A stretch of DNA of 36,828 bases from Nitrospinota bacterium (GTDB taxonomy: Bacteria > UBA8248). The stretch covers positions 1-36,828 of the forward strand of contig JASLZZ010000119.1 of the NCBI GenBank assembly GCA_030754595.1, given 5' to 3'. Below, in pieces: positions 12,010 to 20,727 of the stretch; within the stretch, counting starts at the first letter, position 1, and each line of letters begins with the position of its first letter. Made by a program: the position numbers and the translations under genes. The notes under the pieces are model-generated. The model was not told the origin of the DNA, ran no database searches, and saw only the letters and a list, made by a program, of their open reading frames with translations.

Positions 12010-13008
12010 ATGAATTCGCGGAATTGGACACGTCGCTTCACCCATCTCTGGATCGTGGCACTGGCTCTCGTTATAACGGCCGCCTGGAGCCTGCCCAGCG
12101 CGGAGGCCGCCTGGAAACCCACCCGCCCAATTGAATTCGTCATCATGGCCGGCAAGGGTGGAGGCGCCGACCGCATCGCCCGCCTCATGCAGAAGATCGT
12201 GACGCAGAACAACTGGTCTCCTCAGCCCCTCGTCCCGATCAACAAAAAAGGCGGCTCGGGCGCCGAGGCGATGCTCTACATGAAATCGAAGCAGGGCAAC
12301 CCCCACGTCATCCTCGTGACGCTGAACAGCTTCTTCACCACCCCCGCCCTGCGGAAACTCCCCGTCAGCTACAAGAACTTCACCCCCATCTACCGCCTCG
12401 CGATGGATACGTTCCTCCTCTGGGTGAACAAAAAATCCGGAATCACCAACGTCGATCAGTTCGTCAAGGCCGTGAAGGCCAAGGGCGGAAAATGGACGAT
12501 GGGCGGCACCGGCAAAATGCAGGAAGATCAGCTCGTCACAAACATGCTGAGTCAGGCCTACGGGCTCAAGGGCCTCATCACATACGTCCCCTTCCGGGGC
12601 GGCGGAACGGTGGCCAAGAACCTCGCCGGTGGACACCTCGACTCGACGGTGAACAACCCGGCCGAGGGTCTGCCGCACACACCGAACAAGATGGTGCCGA
12701 TCGCGGCGCTTACACCCAAGCGCATTCCGGCCTTCCCGAACGTTCCCACCTTCGCGGAGCTCGGAAAACCGAGCCTTGTCTATTTCATGATGCGCAGCAT
12801 CAACGCTCCCGGCGGCATTCCGGCTGGCGCGACAAAGTGGTACAGCAACCTTTTCACGAAACTCTGCAACTCGGACGCGTGGAAGACATACACCAAGAAG
12901 AAGGCCCTCAACCGCGCCTGCCTGACCGGCGGGCCGCTGGCCTCCTTCTTCGCGGACGAAGACGTCAAGCACAAAAAACTTCTCAAGGGAATGGGACTTA
13001 TCAAGTAA
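12010..13008 (+). CDS. tctC: Tripartite tricarboxylate transporter substrate-binding protein (Bug/TctC)
   Basis: Signal peptide; WKPTRPIEFVI, GGGADRIAR, YVPFRGGG, PNVPTFAELG; GGAGG RBS. Confidence 0.92.
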   Translation: MNSRNWTRRFTHLWIVALALVITAAWSLPSAEAAWKPTRPIEFVIMAGKGGGADRIARLMQKIVTQNNWSPQPLVPINKKGGSGAEAMLYMKSKQGNPHVILVTLNSFFTTPALRKLPVSYKNFTPIYRLAMDTFLLWVNKKSGITNVDQFVKAVKAKGGKWTMGGTGKMQEDQLVTNMLSQAYGLKGLITYVPFRGGGTVAKNLAGGHLDSTVNNPAEGLPHTPNKMVPIAALTPKRIPAFPNVPTFAELGKPSLVYFMMRSINAPGGIPAGATKWYSNLFTKLCNSDAWKTYTKKKALNRACLTGGPLASFFADEDVKHKKLLKGMGLIK

Positions 13009-13020
13009 CGTGAATCTTCA

Positions 13021-13533
13021 ATGCGCTTAATGGACAGAGCGGTCGCCGCGGTCCTGTTCCTCATCGGCCTCTGCGTCGCATGGAAATCAACCGAACTGCC
13101 GATCGGAATTCTCCCCAAGGAAGGGCCGGGAGGGGGATTTCTCCCCTTCTGGCTCTCCCTGGGGATTTCCCTGGCCGCGGCGGGGGTGTTCGTCCAAAGC
13201 TTCTTTGGCGGCTCCGCAGAGGGGGAGGGAGCTGACGCACCCGCAGAAGAACCGTTTATCTCCTGGGAGAGTTTCACCGATATTCTCCGGGTCGGGATTC
13301 CCGGCCTGATCATGATTCTCCTTACGAGCACCATCTCCATTTATTTCGCGTCCGCGGCGTTCGTTTTCTATTGCCTTTTCTATGTCGGGCGGCACGGCCT
13401 CAAGACAAGTTTGTCGGTGGCCGTCGGCGTGCCGATCGGGGTCTTTTTCATCTTCGAGAAATTCCTGATTATCCCGCTGCCCAAGGGTTTTGCAGAGCCC
13501 TTGTTTTACCTGGAATGGGGTTCTTTTTTTTAA
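13021..13533 (+). CDS. tctB: Tripartite tricarboxylate transporter small membrane subunit
   Basis: GPGGGFLPFWL and FEKFLIIPLPKG motifs, about 4-5 TM helices, between tctC and tctA. Confidence 0.9.
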   Translation: MRLMDRAVAAVLFLIGLCVAWKSTELPIGILPKEGPGGGFLPFWLSLGISLAAAGVFVQSFFGGSAEGEGADAPAEEPFISWESFTDILRVGIPGLIMILLTSTISIYFASAAFVFYCLFYVGRHGLKTSLSVAVGVPIGVFFIFEKFLIIPLPKGFAEPLFYLEWGSFF

Positions 13534-13679
13534 TGCCGGACTGAACCGCATTCTCCCGAATCGGCAGTTTTTTAGGACAAGTCTCTGGTTAAGACCAGGG
13601 CCTCCGGCCCGGCCGGACCATCTGTGACGGCGGCGGAGAAATTAGCGCAATGAGCATTTCGTTTTAAGGAGCGCTTCGC

Positions 13680-15194
13680 GTGGAAATTCTGGGAAATCTT
13701 TTCTACGGGCTCGGCATCGCGCTCTCGCCCGAGAACCTGTTGATGGCCTTGATCGGGGTGGTCCTCGGCGTCGCCATCGGGGCGATGCCGGGGCTCGGCT
13801 CGGTCAATGGGGTGGCGATCTTGCTCCCGATCACCTACGCGGTGCCGCCCACGAGCGCCATTATTTTTCTCGCCGCCATCTACTACGGGGCGATGTACGG
13901 CGGCGCGATCAGCTCGATCACGCTGAACATCCCCGGCGCATCGACGGCGGTCGCCACCACCTTCGACGGCTACCCGCTCGCCCAAAAGGGCCAGGCGGCC
14001 GACGCCCTGGTAACCGCGGCGGTGGCCAGCTTCATCGGCGGCACGATTTCGATTGTCCTCTTCACCTTTTTTGCTCCCCCACTGGCGGAGTTCGCCCTAC
14101 GGTTCGGGCCGCCCGAGGAATTCGCCGTCGTCTTCCTCGCCTACGGAACCTTCGCCGGACTCGGCGGCGAGAGCCCCATCAAGACCCTCATCGCGACCCT
14201 GATGGGCCTGCTCATGTCCACCGTCGGCACGGATATCGTCAGCGGCTCGCCGCGGCTGATCTTCGCCGACATCACGGGTTTTTATCACGGCATCAATTTC
14301 CTCGTCCTGGCCATCGGCCTCTACGGGGTGGGCGAGATCTTCTACACCCTCGAGGGGGGGATGCAGGCGCGCGAGCGATACCAGGCGAAAGTGGGCATCC
14401 GGGAGATCGCGGCGACGATCCGCGATCTGAGGCGCTACACCACCACCCTCCTTCGCGGCTCGCTTTTGGGGTTTTTCGTCGGAATGCTCCCGGCGGCGGG
14501 CGCCACCCCGGCGAGTTTCATGAGCTACTCCATCGCCAAGCGTTTCTCGAAGGAGTCCGGCCAATTCGGCAAGGGGACCATCGAGGGCGTCGCCGCCCCC
14601 GAGTGCGCCAACAACGCCGCCAGCACGGGCGCGATGCTCCCGATGCTGACGCTGGGGATTCCCGGGTCTCCGACGACGGCGGTCATGCTGGGCGCCCTCT
14701 ATGTCTGGGGCCTGGTTCCGGGCCCGCGTCTTTTCATCGAGAACGCCGACTTTGTCTGGGGGCTGACTGGAAGCCTCTACATCGCCAACGCCCTCGCCGT
14801 CCTCGTCGCCCTGTTCGCCATCCCCTTCTTCATCTGGATGCTGCGGATGCCGATGACGATCCTCGCGCCCGTGATACTGGTGGTCTGCGCCGTGGGCGGC
14901 TTCTCCCCGACACAGGACATGTTCGACGTTTACCTGATGTTCTTCTTCGGGGCGATCGGCTATTTTTTCCGCAAGCTCGACTATCCCCTGGCCCCGATGG
15001 TCCTCGCCCTCGTCCTGGGCGGGCTCACCGAGCGCACCTTTCGCCAGAGCTTGATCATCAGCCACGGGAGCATCGGAATTTTTTTCGATTTCTCGGGCCA
15101 CCCCATCGCCGCGACGCTGATGTGGCTCTCGGTCGCCACCTTCGCGGTGCCCGTAATCTCATACTTCCTGGGCAAGCGGCGGTTAAAATTCTAG
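13680..15194 (+). CDS. tctA: Tripartite tricarboxylate transporter large membrane subunit
   Basis: GAMPGLG, YYGAMYGGAIS, GVAAPECANNA, LTLGIPGS; GTG start after AAGGAG. Confidence 0.95.
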   Translation: MEILGNLFYGLGIALSPENLLMALIGVVLGVAIGAMPGLGSVNGVAILLPITYAVPPTSAIIFLAAIYYGAMYGGAISSITLNIPGASTAVATTFDGYPLAQKGQAADALVTAAVASFIGGTISIVLFTFFAPPLAEFALRFGPPEEFAVVFLAYGTFAGLGGESPIKTLIATLMGLLMSTVGTDIVSGSPRLIFADITGFYHGINFLVLAIGLYGVGEIFYTLEGGMQARERYQAKVGIREIAATIRDLRRYTTTLLRGSLLGFFVGMLPAAGATPASFMSYSIAKRFSKESGQFGKGTIEGVAAPECANNAASTGAMLPMLTLGIPGSPTTAVMLGALYVWGLVPGPRLFIENADFVWGLTGSLYIANALAVLVALFAIPFFIWMLRMPMTILAPVILVVCAVGGFSPTQDMFDVYLMFFFGAIGYFFRKLDYPLAPMVLALVLGGLTERTFRQSLIISHGSIGIFFDFSGHPIAATLMWLSVATFAVPVISYFLGKRRLKF

Positions 15195-15265
15195 GCGCCC
15201 CGATTTCCCGGGCAAGTCCTCGCCCTTCCCTTCGCGGGAAGTCTCGCCCAGTAAAAACTCGACCG

Positions 15266-15300
15266 AAAAAAAACGGGCAGGACCGTACCAGATCCCGCCC
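15266..15300 (-). terminator. Rho-independent terminator downstream of the FGE-family gene
   Basis: Minus strand GGGCGGGATC-loop-GGTCCTGCCC followed by G and a T8 run. Confidence 0.7.
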
Positions 15301-15371
15301 ACTCTAATATCATTTTATTTCGCTGATGCGGCTTCCATCACCCGGCGTCCACAACCGGCTTCCACCACCAA

Positions 15372-15389
15372 TCTCCGGGACCCCGGAGA
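15372..15389 (-). promoter_or_regulatory. Putative bacterial SECIS element
   Basis: Minus strand TCTCCGG-GGTC-CCGGAGA: 7-bp stem with a GGUC loop starting 22 nt after the TGA at 15407-15405, with no U-tract behind it. Confidence 0.65.
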
Positions 15390-16292
15390 CTATTCGTTCG
15401 CCGCTCAGCGAAAACCCAGATTCAGGTTCTTGTACCAGGGCTCAAAGCCCTCGCGCGCCGAGCAGCGCAGGCCGTCCTCTATGTAGTCCCATCCGCACCC
15501 GCGCGCCACCTTGGCCGTCCAGGCATACCCCCCCCGACGGGGAAGCCAGCCCTCGGCGTCGCCGAAGCGTATTTTATAAATGTCCTTGTCGCGCCCCAGT
15601 ATCTCGAAGCGCTCCCCCCGCTTCACCTCGCCCAGCGTCAGGCTCCCCCCGCCCGGCACGGCGAACACCGAAATCCGGGCGACGGCCACCTCGAATGTCG
15701 GAAACAACGGCCCGCCGGGGTCCTCGTCCGGGGCGCTGCGGTAGTAGAAGGCATCAAACCAATCGTTCACCCACTCGTAGGCGTTTCCGGCCATCTGGAG
15801 ACACCCGTAAGGGGAGGCGCTCCCCGGTAGCGCATCCGCCGGAAGCGTCCGCCTCTCCTCACCGCCGCTGTATTGCGCCACCTCGGGCAATGGGTCGCCC
15901 TCTCCCCAGGGGTATTTTCTCCCGTCCGCGCCCCGCGCCGCCTTCTCCCACTCCGCCTCGGTGGGTAGGCGCTTTCCGGCCCAGCGGCAATAGGCCTCGG
16001 CCTCCTCCCAAGCGACACTGACGACCGGCTGGCGGGGGCCGACAAAATCGTCTTTCGCGAACGAGGGCGGCGGCGCGAAGGCCTTCATCTCCTCCAAAAA
16101 GCGGCGATACTGCCCGTTGGTCACCTGAAGCTTGTCGATCCAAAACCTGGAGAGCGTCACCCGCCGCTGCGGTTGCTCGTCATGGTCTCCCAGGTCGGAG
16201 CCCATCAGGAACTCCCCCGAGGGAACGCTGACCATCAAGGCGCCGTCCCTGCTCTCGCGCTCTCCGCTTTCCTCGTTCATCTTCTTCTCCAT
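15390..16292 (-). CDS. FGE/SUMF1 (formylglycine-generating enzyme-like) domain protein with inserted SH3-like domain; probable selenoprotein
   Basis: GEFLMGS, PVVSVAWEEAEAYCRWAGKRLPTEAEWEKAARG, MAGNAYEWVNDW; ends NLGFR-TGA-AANE-TAG. If TGA is a stop the CDS ends at 15405. Family call is confident; the Sec reading is inferred. Confidence 0.88.
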
Positions 16293-16311: not shown

Positions 16312-16341
16312 AAAAAAGACGGGACCCTCCCGGGCCCCGTC
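16312..16341 (-). terminator. Rho-independent terminator after the oxidoreductase beta subunit
   Basis: Minus strand GACGGGGCCC-GGGA-GGGTCCCGTC followed by T6. Confidence 0.78.
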
Positions 16342-16386
16342 CGGTTTCGGCTCGGGAGAATTTACGCTCCCCCCCGAAGATTCCTT

Positions 16387-17415
16387 CTACTTCTTGGACG
16401 AATCCTCGCCCAGCTTGAAGGGAATCACGCCGGGCATCGCCCATTCGTCCCACATTTTATTCACTTCATCCTGGAAGTACTGGTAATCCTCCTCGATGAA
16501 GTGGTGGAACCGACCCTGTGTCTCCAGGTACTCGCGGACCGACTTGCGGCTCCGGTTTCCATAAACCTGGCGCGCGGAGATACCGGTATAGGTCAACTCT
16601 TTGTTCGTCATCTCCCAAAGCGGGAAGAGGCCGCTCTCGACGGCCAGCTCGCCCAGCTTGTGAGAGTAGAACGGGTCGTAGTCCCAACCCTTGGGACAGG
16701 GGTCGAAGGTGTGAATAAACGAAGGGCCCGGCTCCTTGAGCCCTTTGCGCACCTTGTCGATCATGTCGGCCGGGTAGGACGCGTCGGCGGTCGCCACATA
16801 GTTGCACTTGGTGTGTCCGACGGCGTACATGGCCGCGATATTTTTCTTCCAGTTCTTGTACATGATCCGGATTTTCTTTCCCGGAGGGGTGAACGTGGTG
16901 TTCGCGCCCCAGGGAGAAGCGCCCGAGATCTGGATGTCGGTGTTCGCATACGACTCATTGTCGTAGCAGATGATCAGTATATTGTACTGGGTGTGCATGA
17001 GCGCCGCCGATATGGCCGAAACGCCCATGTCCACTCCGCCCCCGTCGCCGCAAAAGGCGATGACGTTGATGGGCTCTTCCTTCATTTTCCCCTTGCGCAT
17101 CAGGGCCCGGAGAGCGGCGGCGGTGCCGGTGGCCGCGGAGCCGGCCGAGCCGAGCTGGGTGTGCATCCAGGGCACAACCCAGGGGGTGGAGTAGTAGGTG
17201 GTGTTGGCCACGTACATGCAGCCCGTGCTGCCCAGAATGATGGAGCGGGGGCCGGCGGCCTTGGCCATGAGGCGCATGATGAGCGCGCTCTCGCAGCCCT
17301 GGCAGGTCCGGTGTCCGCTCGTGTAGTACTCCTCAACCGCTTTTTCCGGTATCTGATTCACCCTTCCCGTCAGGGGAAGGTCCTGCGTTCCGATGTGATA
17401 AACAGACTCACTCAT
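16387..17415 (-). CDS. 2-oxoacid:ferredoxin oxidoreductase beta subunit (TPP-binding), oxalate oxidoreductase-like
   Basis: GHRTCQGC, STGC, TPP motif GDGG...YDNESYANT, PCPKGW. Confidence 0.92.
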   Translation of the reverse strand: MSESVYHIGTQDLPLTGRVNQIPEKAVEEYYTSGHRTCQGCESALIMRLMAKAAGPRSIILGSTGCMYVANTTYYSTPWVVPWMHTQLGSAGSAATGTAAALRALMRKGKMKEEPINVIAFCGDGGGVDMGVSAISAALMHTQYNILIICYDNESYANTDIQISGASPWGANTTFTPPGKKIRIMYKNWKKNIAAMYAVGHTKCNYVATADASYPADMIDKVRKGLKEPGPSFIHTFDPCPKGWDYDPFYSHKLGELAVESGLFPLWEMTNKELTYTGISARQVYGNRSRKSVREYLETQGRFHHFIEEDYQYFQDEVNKMWDEWAMPGVIPFKLGEDSSKK

Positions 17416-18635
17416 TATTGTTTCCCCCTCACGCCGACCCAGCGGACATCGTTGTCGGCCTTTCCGCTATTCGCAATGGAGATAACTTCGTCGACCATGG
17501 ACGTGACATCCTCCAGGAGCACTTCCCGGCCGCCGAGGCCGCAGATGAACCCCTTCATGTGAGGTTGACTGTCGGCGCCGTAGAGGGCCGCCTTCACCTC
17601 GTTGAAGAGAATGCCGCCGTGGTAGGGCGAGCCGAACGAATAGTCGCGGTCGATGACGCCCACCGCCTTGAAGCGGGAGAGCGAAGCCCTGAGCTCATCG
17701 GTCGGGAACGGGCGCACCCACTTGAGGCGGACCATTCCGACTTTCTTCCCGGCCTTGCGCATCTCACGGATAGCCACCTTCACCGGCAGGGCCAGCGTGC
17801 CCATCCCGACGAGAACGACATCGGCATCCTCGGTCATGTACTCCTCGAGGAAAGGGTTAACATCTTCGCCGAAAATGCGACTGAAGTCCTTGTAGACCTC
17901 TTTCATCACAGTGTAGGCATTCTTGCCTGCCTCGCTGCTCTGCCGCCGGACTTCCATCAACCAGTCCTCGTTCGCCTGAGGCGCGATCGTTATGGGGTTG
18001 TCCGGGTGGAGGAGAAGATCGCCCCGGTCATAGGGCGGCAGGAATTCGTTCACCTGCTCCTGGCTCGGAACTGTCACCGTCGCCTGGCTATGGGTGAGGA
18101 AGGCGCCGTCCATCGCGATGGCGCAGGGCAGGAACACCCGCGGATCCTCGGCCACGCGGTAGGACATGAGGCCCAGCTCGACCACTTCCTGGGCAGTGGA
18201 GGGGAAGTTGATCATCCACCCCAGGTCGCGCACGAGTAGCGCGTCGTTGTGCTCGGTGCCGAAGGCGCCCGGGTCGTCGAGCGCCCGACAGCCCACCAGC
18301 GCCACCATCGGAAGCCGAAGGCCGGCGGTCACCGCGAGCGGCTCCATCGCGTAGAGCCAGCCCACGCCGCTCGAACCTGTGAACACCCGCGCTCCGCAGG
18401 CCGAGGCGTGCTTGACGACCTCGAACTGGCCGTGTTCGCTTTCGGCCGGAATATAGTCGGCGTCAAAATCGCCGTTCGCGATCATTTTCGAGACGAACTG
18501 CATCACCGTGTCATAGGGGCGGATGGGATAGGCGGTGAGAACATCCACATCGGCCAGACGGCAGATGTGGGCCATCACCTCGCTCCCCGTTAGAAGCTCT
18601 ACCCCAGCCCCTTTCTGCTCTACTGCTGTCGCCAT
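17415..18635 (-). CDS. 2-oxoacid:ferredoxin oxidoreductase alpha subunit, oxalate oxidoreductase-like
   Basis: RLADVDVLTAYPIRPY (YPIRP rather than YPITP), ESEH, ARVFTGSSGVG, RPFP, GLGGRE. Confidence 0.92.
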   Translation of the reverse strand: MATAVEQKGAGVELLTGSEVMAHICRLADVDVLTAYPIRPYDTVMQFVSKMIANGDFDADYIPAESEHGQFEVVKHASACGARVFTGSSGVGWLYAMEPLAVTAGLRLPMVALVGCRALDDPGAFGTEHNDALLVRDLGWMINFPSTAQEVVELGLMSYRVAEDPRVFLPCAIAMDGAFLTHSQATVTVPSQEQVNEFLPPYDRGDLLLHPDNPITIAPQANEDWLMEVRRQSSEAGKNAYTVMKEVYKDFSRIFGEDVNPFLEEYMTEDADVVLVGMGTLALPVKVAIREMRKAGKKVGMVRLKWVRPFPTDELRASLSRFKAVGVIDRDYSFGSPYHGGILFNEVKAALYGADSQPHMKGFICGLGGREVLLEDVTSMVDEVISIANSGKADNDVRWVGVRGKQ

Positions 18636-18649
18636 CTTTTCAGCTCCTA

Positions 18650-19837
18650 TTAGAGTTCTTTCAGGGATTTGGTGGAAAAGGTCTTGTCGTTATGTCCGCC
18701 CTCGAGACCCAGGCCCGAGAAAGCGCCGGCAAGCCCGGTGATCGGGTGGCGATTCTCCACCTTGCCCGCCGAGAGTTTGTCTTCAACGTATTTGCCGAAA
18801 GCGTCCTTATCGTTGGTCCACATCTGATACTGGCTGTCCCTGTCCTCGAAAGCGGTTTCGTAGGCCATCTGAAGGCATTCAGGAACCGGACAAATGGCCT
18901 CGCAGACCCCGCAGCCGATGCAGGCTTCCATGTTCGGATCGAAGTAGCCGTCCGGCGTCACGTCGAAGGCACTGTCCGGGCAAGCGACCCAGCAGAGGGT
19001 GCACTTCGTGCACTTGTCGAACTGGAGCACCGGCCGCATCGAGCGGGTGGACCATTTCTTGAAATACGGGTTCCGGCCCGGAACATACCCGTCCTTCGAG
19101 TCGCCGTAGCCGTTGTGGCCGCCCACGGCGTCGATGACGACGCCCGGCCGCATGGAGTCCCAGCCGAGCAGCTCGAAGGTGAAGGGAACCTCGGTGTTGC
19201 CCTCGCCTGCCTTGACTTCGTCGGAGCGCGCATCCTCGAAGCTCGCCCGCGCGGCCTCGACGTGATGATCGCCGCCGACGTTTTCGCGGATGGCGGCCTC
19301 AAGAGAAGCCACCGAGCAAATCTCGGGGCAGGCCTTGAGGGCCGCGCCGAGACAGCGAGCGTCGGTGCCGTCGTCCTTGTAGACAAAAAGGCCGGCGAAG
19401 CTGGCGCCGCCCTTGAGGATGGACAGCTTGTAGGGCGTGTCTCTCCGGTGCATCTGCTTGACGAGAGCCTCGGACGAGTTGTTCGAGGTCATGATAAGCG
19501 TACCGCCCGGCTTCGTCACAGCGTTGAGCGGTTGCAGCCCGGTCCAGGCCCACGACTCGAGCCCCTGGGTCAAGGTGTCGTCCGCGCAGATGGAGACATC
19601 GACCTGCTTGGGTTCGTACTGCGCGGCGATCTCCTCGAGCTCCTCCGGCGTGTCAGTGATATAGCCGAACTGCTTCGCCGGAATGCCGTTGCGCTCGGGC
19701 GAGTCGCTGTAGCGTCCGAACGAGACGCCGTGCTTGCCTTCCTTGACGGCCGCCAGGATCATGGTCCGGCTAATCTTTTGCGCGAGCTGCCTTTGAAAAA
19801 CTCCTCTGTAAATCACCTCGAAAGAAACTATGCCCAC
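18650..19837 (-). CDS. Fused gamma-delta (ferredoxin) subunit, oxalate oxidoreductase delta-like
   Basis: Two 4Fe-4S motifs CTKCTLCWVACP and CIGCGVCEAICP after a gamma-like domain; GTG start at 19837 follows GGAGG. Confidence 0.88.
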   Translation of the reverse strand: MGIVSFEVIYRGVFQRQLAQKISRTMILAAVKEGKHGVSFGRYSDSPERNGIPAKQFGYITDTPEELEEIAAQYEPKQVDVSICADDTLTQGLESWAWTGLQPLNAVTKPGGTLIMTSNNSSEALVKQMHRRDTPYKLSILKGGASFAGLFVYKDDGTDARCLGAALKACPEICSVASLEAAIRENVGGDHHVEAARASFEDARSDEVKAGEGNTEVPFTFELLGWDSMRPGVVIDAVGGHNGYGDSKDGYVPGRNPYFKKWSTRSMRPVLQFDKCTKCTLCWVACPDSAFDVTPDGYFDPNMEACIGCGVCEAICPVPECLQMAYETAFEDRDSQYQMWTNDKDAFGKYVEDKLSAGKVENRHPITGLAGAFSGLGLEGGHNDKTFSTKSLKEL

Positions 19838-20013
19838 ACCATTTACCTCCCGAATCCGATTAGGAGTTTCACGGTAGCCGGCCAAAAGTCAGGCCGGCAG
19901 AAAAAAAACAACCTCAAACAGAAATACCCGCCGAAGGTCCGGCGGAACGATCGAAACCGCCTATCGCCTCGTCCCCTAGTTCCCCTCCCTCGTTAGAAAT
20001 GAAGCGCAGTTCG

Positions 20014-20727
20014 TTAATTTATGGCCGACTCGGAATTCATTTCCCCGCCCTCGATTTCGAGCAGGTGACTGATCATGTTCGCCACGGCGTCTTGCTCCCG
20101 GCCGTTTTTCACGGCATCGAGAATCTTCAGATGCGTCTCGTGAGACCGGATGCGGTCGCTTATCCTGCGGACCGAGCGCTCCCTGAGCTCGCGGAGCGAG
20201 GCCAACAAGGTGCCGAGTAGTTTTTCGAGAAACTCGTTCTTGGCCGCCCCGGCGAGAGCCATGTGGAACTGGGTGTCCTCCTCGATGCCGCTTCCACCGG
20301 TATCCACCGCTTTTCGCTGCCGCACGAGAATCCGGTCAAGCTCCCTAAGCTCGTCGGTGCCAGCCCGCTCGGCCGCGAGGGCGGCGATCTGGGGCTCGAG
20401 AACCCGCCGGGCCTCGAAGAGGTGGTGGACCCCGCTCTCCTCCTCGGAGATTCGCGCCGAAAGGACCGGGACCAGCGAATCGGGGGTGGCGATAATGAAT
20501 GTCCCCTCGCCCTGTCGGGTTACCACCAGGTTGGCCGACTCAAGCGCCCGCGTCGCCTCGCGGACCGAATTTCTCCCAACAGCGAAGCGCTCGCCCAACT
20601 CGCGTTCGGAGGGGAGTTTGTCCCCGACCTTGAGGTCGCCGCTCAGGATCAGCGAGGTGATCTGGGAGACGATCTCCTCGTAGACTCTGACTCTTCGAAC
20701 GGCCTGGAGCTGGGGCTCAATTGCCAA
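20014..20727 (-). CDS. GntR family regulator, FadR subfamily
   Basis: GDKLPSERELGERFAVGRNSVREA HTH, RQGEGTFI wing, FCD domain EDTQFHMALA. Confidence 0.93.
   Translation of the reverse strand: MAIEPQLQAVRRVRVYEEIVSQITSLILSGDLKVGDKLPSERELGERFAVGRNSVREATRALESANLVVTRQGEGTFIIATPDSLVPVLSARISEEESGVHHLFEARRVLEPQIAALAAERAGTDELRELDRILVRQRKAVDTGGSGIEEDTQFHMALAGAAKNEFLEKLLGTLLASLRELRERSVRRISDRIRSHETHLKILDAVKNGREQDAVANMISHLLEIEGGEMNSESAIN

Follow-up and report, generated by a model that had tools for sequence, protein, structure and literature searches.

Where a protein has selenocysteine (Sec), that residue nearly always takes part in the chemistry. In mammalian thioredoxin reductase it stands in a C-terminal Gly-Cys-Sec-Gly sequence and forms a selenenylsulfide with the adjacent Cys, and Arner and colleagues are said to have expressed this enzyme in E. 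coli in 1999 with a bacterial Sec insertion sequence (SECIS) behind the stop codon, so that an untranslated SECIS reportedly works. The SECIS of E. coli fdhF carries the loop GGUC. For the E. coli element, the upper stem-loop has been placed 11 nt from the UGA, with G23 and U24 in the loop (PMC8659212). Bacterial families with a C-terminal Sec are already on record, namely KCU-star (NF033934) and UXX-star (NF041114 and NF041211), which appear in Table 1 of a May 2026 review (PMC13188914) and in a preprint by Haft. Human formylglycine-generating enzyme (FGE; SUMF1), finally, is described with two structural disulfides, Cys346–Cys235 and Cys365–Cys218, in addition to the active-site pair Cys336/Cys341 (PMC4505483). 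Here we analyzed a 36,828-nt stretch of Nitrospinota bacterium DNA (GCA_030754595.1, contig JASLZZ010000119.1; hereafter the window) containing a gene for a protein of the FGE fold that is, from sequence comparison, highly likely to be a genuine bacterial selenoprotein gene, its in-frame UGA-296 being decoded as Sec at the position of human Cys365.

The gene lies on the minus strand (15390–16292) and was delimited by its open reading frame, Pfam and its orthologs. It comprises 300 codons from an ATG at 16292, and the interval includes both UGA-296 and the true stop codon. An alternative ATG at 16280, which has GGAG just upstream and is the start used in most orthologs and database models, would give 296 codons and place the Sec at residue 292. 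Around the UGA (15405–15407), the minus strand reads K-N-L-N-L-G-F-R, with GGT TTT CGC TGA as its last codons, followed by the four sense codons GCG GCG AAC GAA (AANE; 15393–15404) and TAG (15390–15392). The UGA thus occupies the Cys position of the GFRC motif of the superfamily. Directly behind the TAG follows the SECIS-like hairpin TCTCCGG-GGTC-CCGGAGA (15372–15389, minus strand), with a GC-rich stem of 7 bp and a GGUC loop 22 nt after the UGA. The stem can be extended to 10 pairs (15368–15392) by adding the stop codon and a further three bases; it then begins 12 nt after the UGA, and the TAG pairs into its base. A terminator-like hairpin with a T-tract (15270–15305, minus strand), probably the 3′ end of the transcript, lies 85 nt further downstream. 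This reading agrees in all respects with the preliminary description of the locus, which had proposed that the frame runs past its apparent end at NLGFR as GFR-U-AANE-stop, that the hairpin has its loop 22 nt after the UGA and lacks a U-tract, and that a separate terminator lies near 15266–15300.

To see what stands at the UGA codon in related genes, we searched 51 genomes of the phylum (42 from the same family and 9 others) in six frames, reading through stops. Full-length orthologs, including a domain insert described below, were found in 37 of the 42 family genomes at 66–93% identity. The other 9 genomes searched had no ortholog, nor was there one outside the family in a library of 50%-identity cluster representatives, where the whole group forms a single cluster. 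The C-terminus could be read at the DNA level in 35 of the 37 orthologs; those of genomes G022 and G026, which are partial or split and showed no stop in the search, were left out. The codon after GFR was TGA in 6, TGC in 25 and TGT in 4 genes. Four of the TGA genes belong to the same genus as the window (G000, G001, G002 and G003) and the other two, G009 and G008, to two further genera, making three in total. Homologs therefore have Cys aligned with the UGA, and the UGA itself recurs in two or more different sequences, as is expected of selenoprotein genes; alternation with Cys codons alone is the usual signature of Sec. Among 169 other FGE-family loci (paralogs from the same genome, public genomes and metagenomes), 162 of 198 motif hits were followed by Cys and none by a stop, and a crude test found no interrupted FGE domain in any of them.

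Similarly, a collection of 5.8 billion proteins yielded 46 matches at E 1e-60 or better, 25 of which were ortholog clusters (66–98% identity). Twelve of these have ...GFR as their very last residues, and the other 13 have GFRC with four residues after it. Public genome and metagenome contigs gave two orthologs among the matches listed, the rest being paralogs, and no further UGA-bearing DNA. From the UGA through the tail to the hairpin, contigs from four sequencing runs of four studies (seawater, marine and vent metagenomes) matched the window without a difference. A related contig with the sequence ...F-R-C(TGT)-A-M-D-A-stop (corresponding to window positions 15415–15471) is present in three of these runs as well (X9, X13 and X17), so that Sec-form and Cys-form relatives co-occur. 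Two orthologs show possible breaks or assembly errors: a match in G063 (L058) carries one TAG, and the gene of G026 (contig C97) is split over two frames, 1912–2571 and 2555–2797.

The sequence behind the UGA is conserved as well. In all six UGA genes the reading frame continues for exactly four codons before a stop, with the tails AANE, AADE, VGDE, VENE, AQDA and AMDG, all of which follow the pattern [AV]-x-[DN]-x. The Cys forms have the same pattern in tails of four (26/29) or five codons (3/29). A GC hairpin begins at the first base of the true stop, or no more than 4 nt from it, in each of the six UGA genes. Using a strict rule (at least 6 uninterrupted pairs, at least 4 of them G-C), we detected it in five of the six; the sixth (G003) has 4 + 3 pairs around one C·A mismatch. 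By the same rule, a hairpin was present in only 2 of the 29 Cys genes and in 87 of the 2763 (3.1%) open frames of at least 300 codons in the genome of the window. The loops of the six hairpins start 22, 22, 22, 23, 20 and 22 nt after the UGA and read GGUC in four genes, GGC in one and CGUGA in one, with a G at the first or second loop position throughout. This is the stable stem-loop with a small, G-containing loop shortly after the UGA that one would look for in a selenoprotein gene. Furthermore, the six genes have four distinct stem sequences, yet 35 of the 36 cells in the six inner stem pairs hold a standard pair, and both sides have changed at pairs 2, 3, 5 and 6 (counted from the loop outwards). 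Pairs were counted by script, as a MAFFT alignment of the six hairpins misplaced that of G009.

The only Cys-form gene in the genus of the window (G004, L018) has a decayed hairpin, CCGG-AGUU-CCGG, with a new mismatch, and Ser at residue 102. This is consistent with what a change from Sec to Cys followed by loss of constraint would leave behind. An origin of the hairpin as a repeat or a miniature inverted-repeat transposable element was rejected, the hairpin being single-copy in the genome.

The assembly to which the window belongs (138 contigs, 96.9% complete) encodes the full Sec machinery: tRNA-Sec (73.6 bits; anticodon tca according to ARAGORN), selA (552 bits), selB (364 bits) and selD (345 bits). 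The selD gene (contig C16:24543–25505, locus L013) carries one in-frame TGA and is a selenoprotein gene in its own right (AGG-U-GSK). In the hairpin behind this UGA, GGUCC-GGA-GGACC, the loop begins at a distance of 17 nt and is small and G-first, as in the FGE-fold gene. A Sec-containing FdhA was not found in this genome, where all 17 matches were under the cut-off and none had an internal stop. Across the family, selA was detected in 40 and selB in 39 of the 42 genomes, including all six with a UGA-bearing gene. The preliminary description had suggested looking for selA, selB, selC and selD, for Cys at the aligned position and for a covarying hairpin among TGA-bearing homologs, and had named a TGA private to this assembly as grounds for dropping the proposal. 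The genes were all present, with tRNA-Sec and the UGA-containing selD among them; 29 of 35 orthologs had TGC or TGT; the hairpin was kept in all six TGA genes through compensatory changes and was mostly absent from the Cys genes; and the TGA recurred in six orthologs of three genera. The apparent alternation of Sec with Cys, the conserved tail, the covarying hairpin tied to the UGA and the machinery all emerge from such comparison of sequences.

We then asked where the putative Sec lies in the protein. The product belongs to the FGE superfamily (Pfam FGE-sulfatase PF03781, E 3e-50, 171.6 bits versus a cut-off of 23.3). An AlphaFold2 (AF2) model built from a 45-row alignment reached a mean predicted local distance difference test score (pLDDT) of 92.8 and a predicted template modelling score (pTM) of 0.90, and its best Foldseek matches were FGE structures (template modelling score 0.64–0.70, E about 1e-19, probability 1.00). 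A phmmer search of PDB sequences aligned human FGE at E 2.6e-26 (human residue numbers are the chain index + 72). In this alignment, AEAYC-RWAGKRLPTEAEWE corresponds to human AVAYC-TWAGKRLPTEAEWE, which equates Cys102 with Cys218, and LRC-SAR...NLGFR-U-AAN corresponds to human YRC-AAR...NLGFR-C-AAD, which equates Cys277 with Cys346 and U296 with Cys365. The alignment therefore agrees with the earlier proposal that the GFRC cysteine is disulfide-bonded to the AYC cysteine in human SUMF1 and that the latter is retained here as Cys102, and the bond itself is among those named in PMC4505483. The codon for Cys102, the likely partner of the Sec, lies at 15987–15989 (minus strand).

The protein is not an FGE proper. 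Its cysteines are at residues 102, 164, 266 and 277, and it has no CxxxxC motif, as the preliminary description had noted for the catalytic pair; the region corresponding to the two catalytic cysteines (human Cys336/Cys341) reads RGCGWDYIEDGLRC (15462–15497, minus strand). This segment, with Cys266 and Cys277, is invariant in all 59 ortholog rows that we compared (34 from loci and 25 database clusters, several of them identical pairs; the partial L044 was left out). Residues from about 197 to 258 (15519–15704, minus strand) form an SH3-like beta-barrel inserted in the FGE domain, which is specific to this ortholog group. The insert matches Pfam SH3_3 below the cut-off (E 4.7e-4), has six strands in the AF2 model and is missing from the PDB structures and from the paralogs, which match up to about residue 200. 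Since the N-terminus lacks a hydrophobic signal sequence, the protein is probably cytoplasmic. NCBIfam gave sub-threshold matches alone, to EgtB, SenA, GldK and PvdO. Identity as an EgtB/OvoA/OvsA/SenA synthase was rejected, because only the FGE-like part matches (EgtB, 86.6 bits versus a cut-off of 360; SenA, 79.9 versus 420), and neither Pfam nor the AF2 model showed an extra N-terminal domain of the DinB-like, iron-binding kind found in EgtB-type synthases.

There are three ways in which this UGA could be something other than a Sec codon. It could be a real stop, the protein ending at Arg295, five residues short, and the hairpin serving to stabilize the mRNA or to attenuate transcription. 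Several observations would fit this and weigh against decoding as Sec. Gene callers end the protein at this codon in 12 of the 25 clusters; 5 of these match genomes that we read at the DNA level, but the other 7 are known only from where the gene caller stopped. The plus-strand copy of the hairpin was picked up by a crude terminator scan, and the hairpin taken alone is within chance (z = −1.47; 13 of 200 shuffles fold as well) in this GC-rich DNA, so that support for it rests on the ortholog comparison. An Rfam scan of 15250–15500 gave chance-level hits alone and no SECIS family. GC hairpins near the stop also occur in two Cys genes, L023 (G012, loop CGAG) and L042 (G029, loop CCGCC), which could be SECIS relics or chance. 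Cys102 is dispensable in most Cys forms, so that the protein might do without its last cysteine too. With only four codons behind the UGA, evidence for downstream coding is weak on its own; none of the runs listed as containing this stretch is recorded as RNA; and the UGA genes all belong to a single bacterial family. However, a real stop would cost the protein the most conserved residue of its superfamily, which none of the 198 motif hits described above has replaced by a stop. It would also leave the four codons and second stop that are in frame in 6/6 genes, with the same tail pattern as in the Cys forms, to coincidence. The hairpin lacks a U-tract, lies at a constant distance from the UGA and has a G in its loop; it tracks the UGA rather than the gene (5–6 of 6 versus 2 of 29), a proper terminator lies further on, and the organism decodes UGA as Sec elsewhere, in selD. 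We therefore regard a real stop as improbable.

Selenium-independent read-through, whether through leaky termination or a near-cognate tRNA (Trp or Cys), would account for the conserved tail equally well, as the tail speaks for continued translation and not for the residue inserted. It would leave unexplained the complete Sec machinery in all six UGA genomes, a hairpin that resembles that of selD at the distance of a SECIS, and a UGA that alternates solely with Cys codons, and we consider it distinctly less probable still. A sequencing or assembly error or a recent pseudogene might be suspected in a fragmented assembly with at least one broken FGE paralog (on contig C14). Yet six species-level genomes from three genera share this codon, and the rest of the gene is intact, both in its identity to the orthologs and in the confidence of its structural model. 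Because identical contigs came from four independent studies, a read or assembly error is excluded, and the explanation as a whole is scarcely credible. This leaves decoding of UGA-296 as Sec as the reading on which we base what follows.

Decoding would proceed as follows. Once the ribosome reaches the UGA, SelB carrying Sec-tRNA(Sec) would bind the hairpin, whose stem begins 12–15 nt downstream and whose small, G-containing loop lies at 22 nt. Sec would be inserted, the four codons for AANE would be translated while the hairpin unwinds, and the ribosome would terminate at the UAG in the stem base. With the stop codon in this place, the SECIS would be almost wholly in the 3′ untranslated region. 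Sec296 would then occupy the place of human Cys365, beside Cys102 (the counterpart of human Cys218), in a protein that lacks the copper-binding cysteine pair of FGE. We infer both the binding of SelB and the identity of the inserted residue.

Given that Sec generally marks chemistry, the GFRC cysteine and its AYC partner are indicated as a functional site. We compared residues 102 and 296 across the 59 ortholog rows. Where residue 296 is Sec, Cys102 was present in 18 rows and absent in none, whereas among the rows with Cys296 it was present in 5 and replaced by Ala or Ser in 36. This association is no more than suggestive; it would fit a rule by which Cys102 is needed once residue 296 is Sec and can be lost when it is Cys. 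In a quick maximum-likelihood tree with four paralogs as the outgroup, where the root is uncertain and connects long branches, the Sec forms were basal and paraphyletic, and the Cys forms comprised G004, one large clade and the genera g2 and g7. The tree requires at least 3 changes between Sec and Cys and 2 changes at residue 102. For co-evolution of Sec with Cys102 this gives 2–3 independent pairs (p 0.5), too few to weigh the association statistically. A general role of the pair is opposed by the 36 of 41 Cys rows that lack Cys102 and by 3 of 4 paralog outgroups, which have Ala there despite their GFRC. With so many Cys rows and outgroups lacking it, the GFRC cysteine does not generally need a partner of the Cys102 type. 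On balance, a redox-active selenenylsulfide between Sec296 and Cys102, the proximity of which we infer from homology, has about an even chance of being correct, with some support from the joint occurrence of the two residues. The invariant Cys266 and Cys277 may be part of the same redox center.

In its fold, the protein resembles the FGEs of human (1Y1E), S. coelicolor (2Q17) and T. curvata (5NXL), and its AYC...PTEAEWE and NLGFRCA motifs align with theirs residue for residue. It differs from them in several ways: the copper-binding catalytic pair is absent, the position of the partner of Cys346 (human Cys235) is Ala119, no signal sequence is visible, a barrel of about 60 residues is inserted, and Sec would replace a cysteine that is structural in FGE. 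This last trait, a Sec where the characterized enzyme of the fold has a structural cysteine, is, if the codon is read as proposed, what is unusual about the gene. The mechanism of decoding, on the other hand, is the ordinary bacterial one, and a near-C-terminal Sec with the SECIS behind the stop has precedents. As in the SECIS of the fdhF type from E. coli, the hairpin is located just 3′ of the UGA and has a small loop with G and U (here the stem begins at 12 nt, with G27 and U28). Unlike there, the loop is about 4 nt further from the UGA, no bulged U is evident, and the element lies outside the reading frame except for the stop codon.

With the KCU-star and UXX-star families the gene shares a Sec located only a few residues from the true stop, which forces the SECIS into the 3′ untranslated region and costs gene callers no more than a short tail. 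Those are small proteins of unrelated sequence (there was no NCBIfam match), whereas here the Sec would close an enzyme-like fold of 300 residues. The likeness to thioredoxin reductase, a different protein family, likewise consists in a Sec near the C-terminus. The selenenylsulfide is established there and proposed here; its partner is adjacent there, whereas here it is 194 residues away and would be brought close by the fold.

We found no FGE, SUMF1, PF03781 or sulfatase entry among the 119 prokaryotic selenoprotein families and subfamilies in Table 1 of PMC13188914, nor any mention in its main text, in line with the earlier suggestion that this may not be an established selenoprotein family. 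The main texts of BSepDB 2026, deep-Sep 2025, a 2022 review, the Haft 2022 preprint, Olavius 2007 and GOS 2008 yielded no FGE-related mention, and the main text of the Sargasso 2005 paper yielded none of a sulfatase. Literature searches returned no published report that links selenoproteins or selenocysteine with the FGE family (COG1262, DUF323), and no NCBIfam selenoprotein model matches the protein. It would thus very probably add an uncatalogued family to the bacterial selenoproteins and, with it, a fold class to a catalogue dominated by thioredoxin-like proteins. Because truncation removes only five residues, the gene looks complete and its Sec is invisible to annotation; about half of the ortholog clusters in the 5.8-billion-protein database are cut at this codon. 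The superfamily itself is large, with >150,000 representatives at E 0.001 or better (one per 50%-identity cluster), most of them without known activity. The gene would also be a natural example of a bacterial SECIS located behind, and including, the stop codon, a layout used for recombinant C-terminal selenoproteins.

The only functional lead for the FGE-fold protein is its neighborhood. Directly upstream, on the same strand, lie the three genes of a 2-oxoacid:ferredoxin oxidoreductase (16387–19885), encoding a Fer4-containing subunit (18650–19885), a POR_N/PFOR_II alpha subunit (17415–18635) and a thiamine pyrophosphate-binding beta subunit (16387–17415). A terminator-like hairpin with a T-tract (16317–16342, minus strand) separates the beta-subunit gene from the FGE-fold gene. 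The FGE-fold gene comes next after that for the beta subunit, in the same orientation, in 32 of 35 ortholog loci, and the other 3 loci reach a contig border first. As all loci are from one family, this conserved order might also reflect plain vertical inheritance, which tells against a functional link. No sulfatase was present among the neighboring genes annotated by Pfam in the window. We tentatively suggest, with less confidence than for the selenenylsulfide, that the FGE-fold protein is an accessory of the upstream oxidoreductase. One can combine these points into a speculative and rather doubtful scenario in which the ancestral structural disulfide of FGE became a catalytic selenenylsulfide between Cys102 and Sec296 in a cytoplasmic protein, whose SH3-like insert would dock on the upstream 2-oxoacid:ferredoxin oxidoreductase and help to keep this oxygen-sensitive enzyme reduced or repaired. 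If this scenario were true, the GFRC cysteine that is invariant in the FGE-like superfamily would have a redox role and not a structural one.

Further upstream on the minus strand, the window contains a gene for a GntR/FCD regulator (20014–20727). Downstream, a TctCBA tricarboxylate transporter is encoded on the plus strand (12010–15194) and converges on the FGE-fold gene; TctA is a neighbor in some of the ortholog loci only. Elsewhere in the same genome, an FGE paralog with a signal-like N-terminus (C14:14387–14914, L046) is broken twice, by a TGA at the conserved Gly of YPWG and by a TAG at the conserved Trp of EW. This paralog looks like a pseudogene rather than another selenoprotein.

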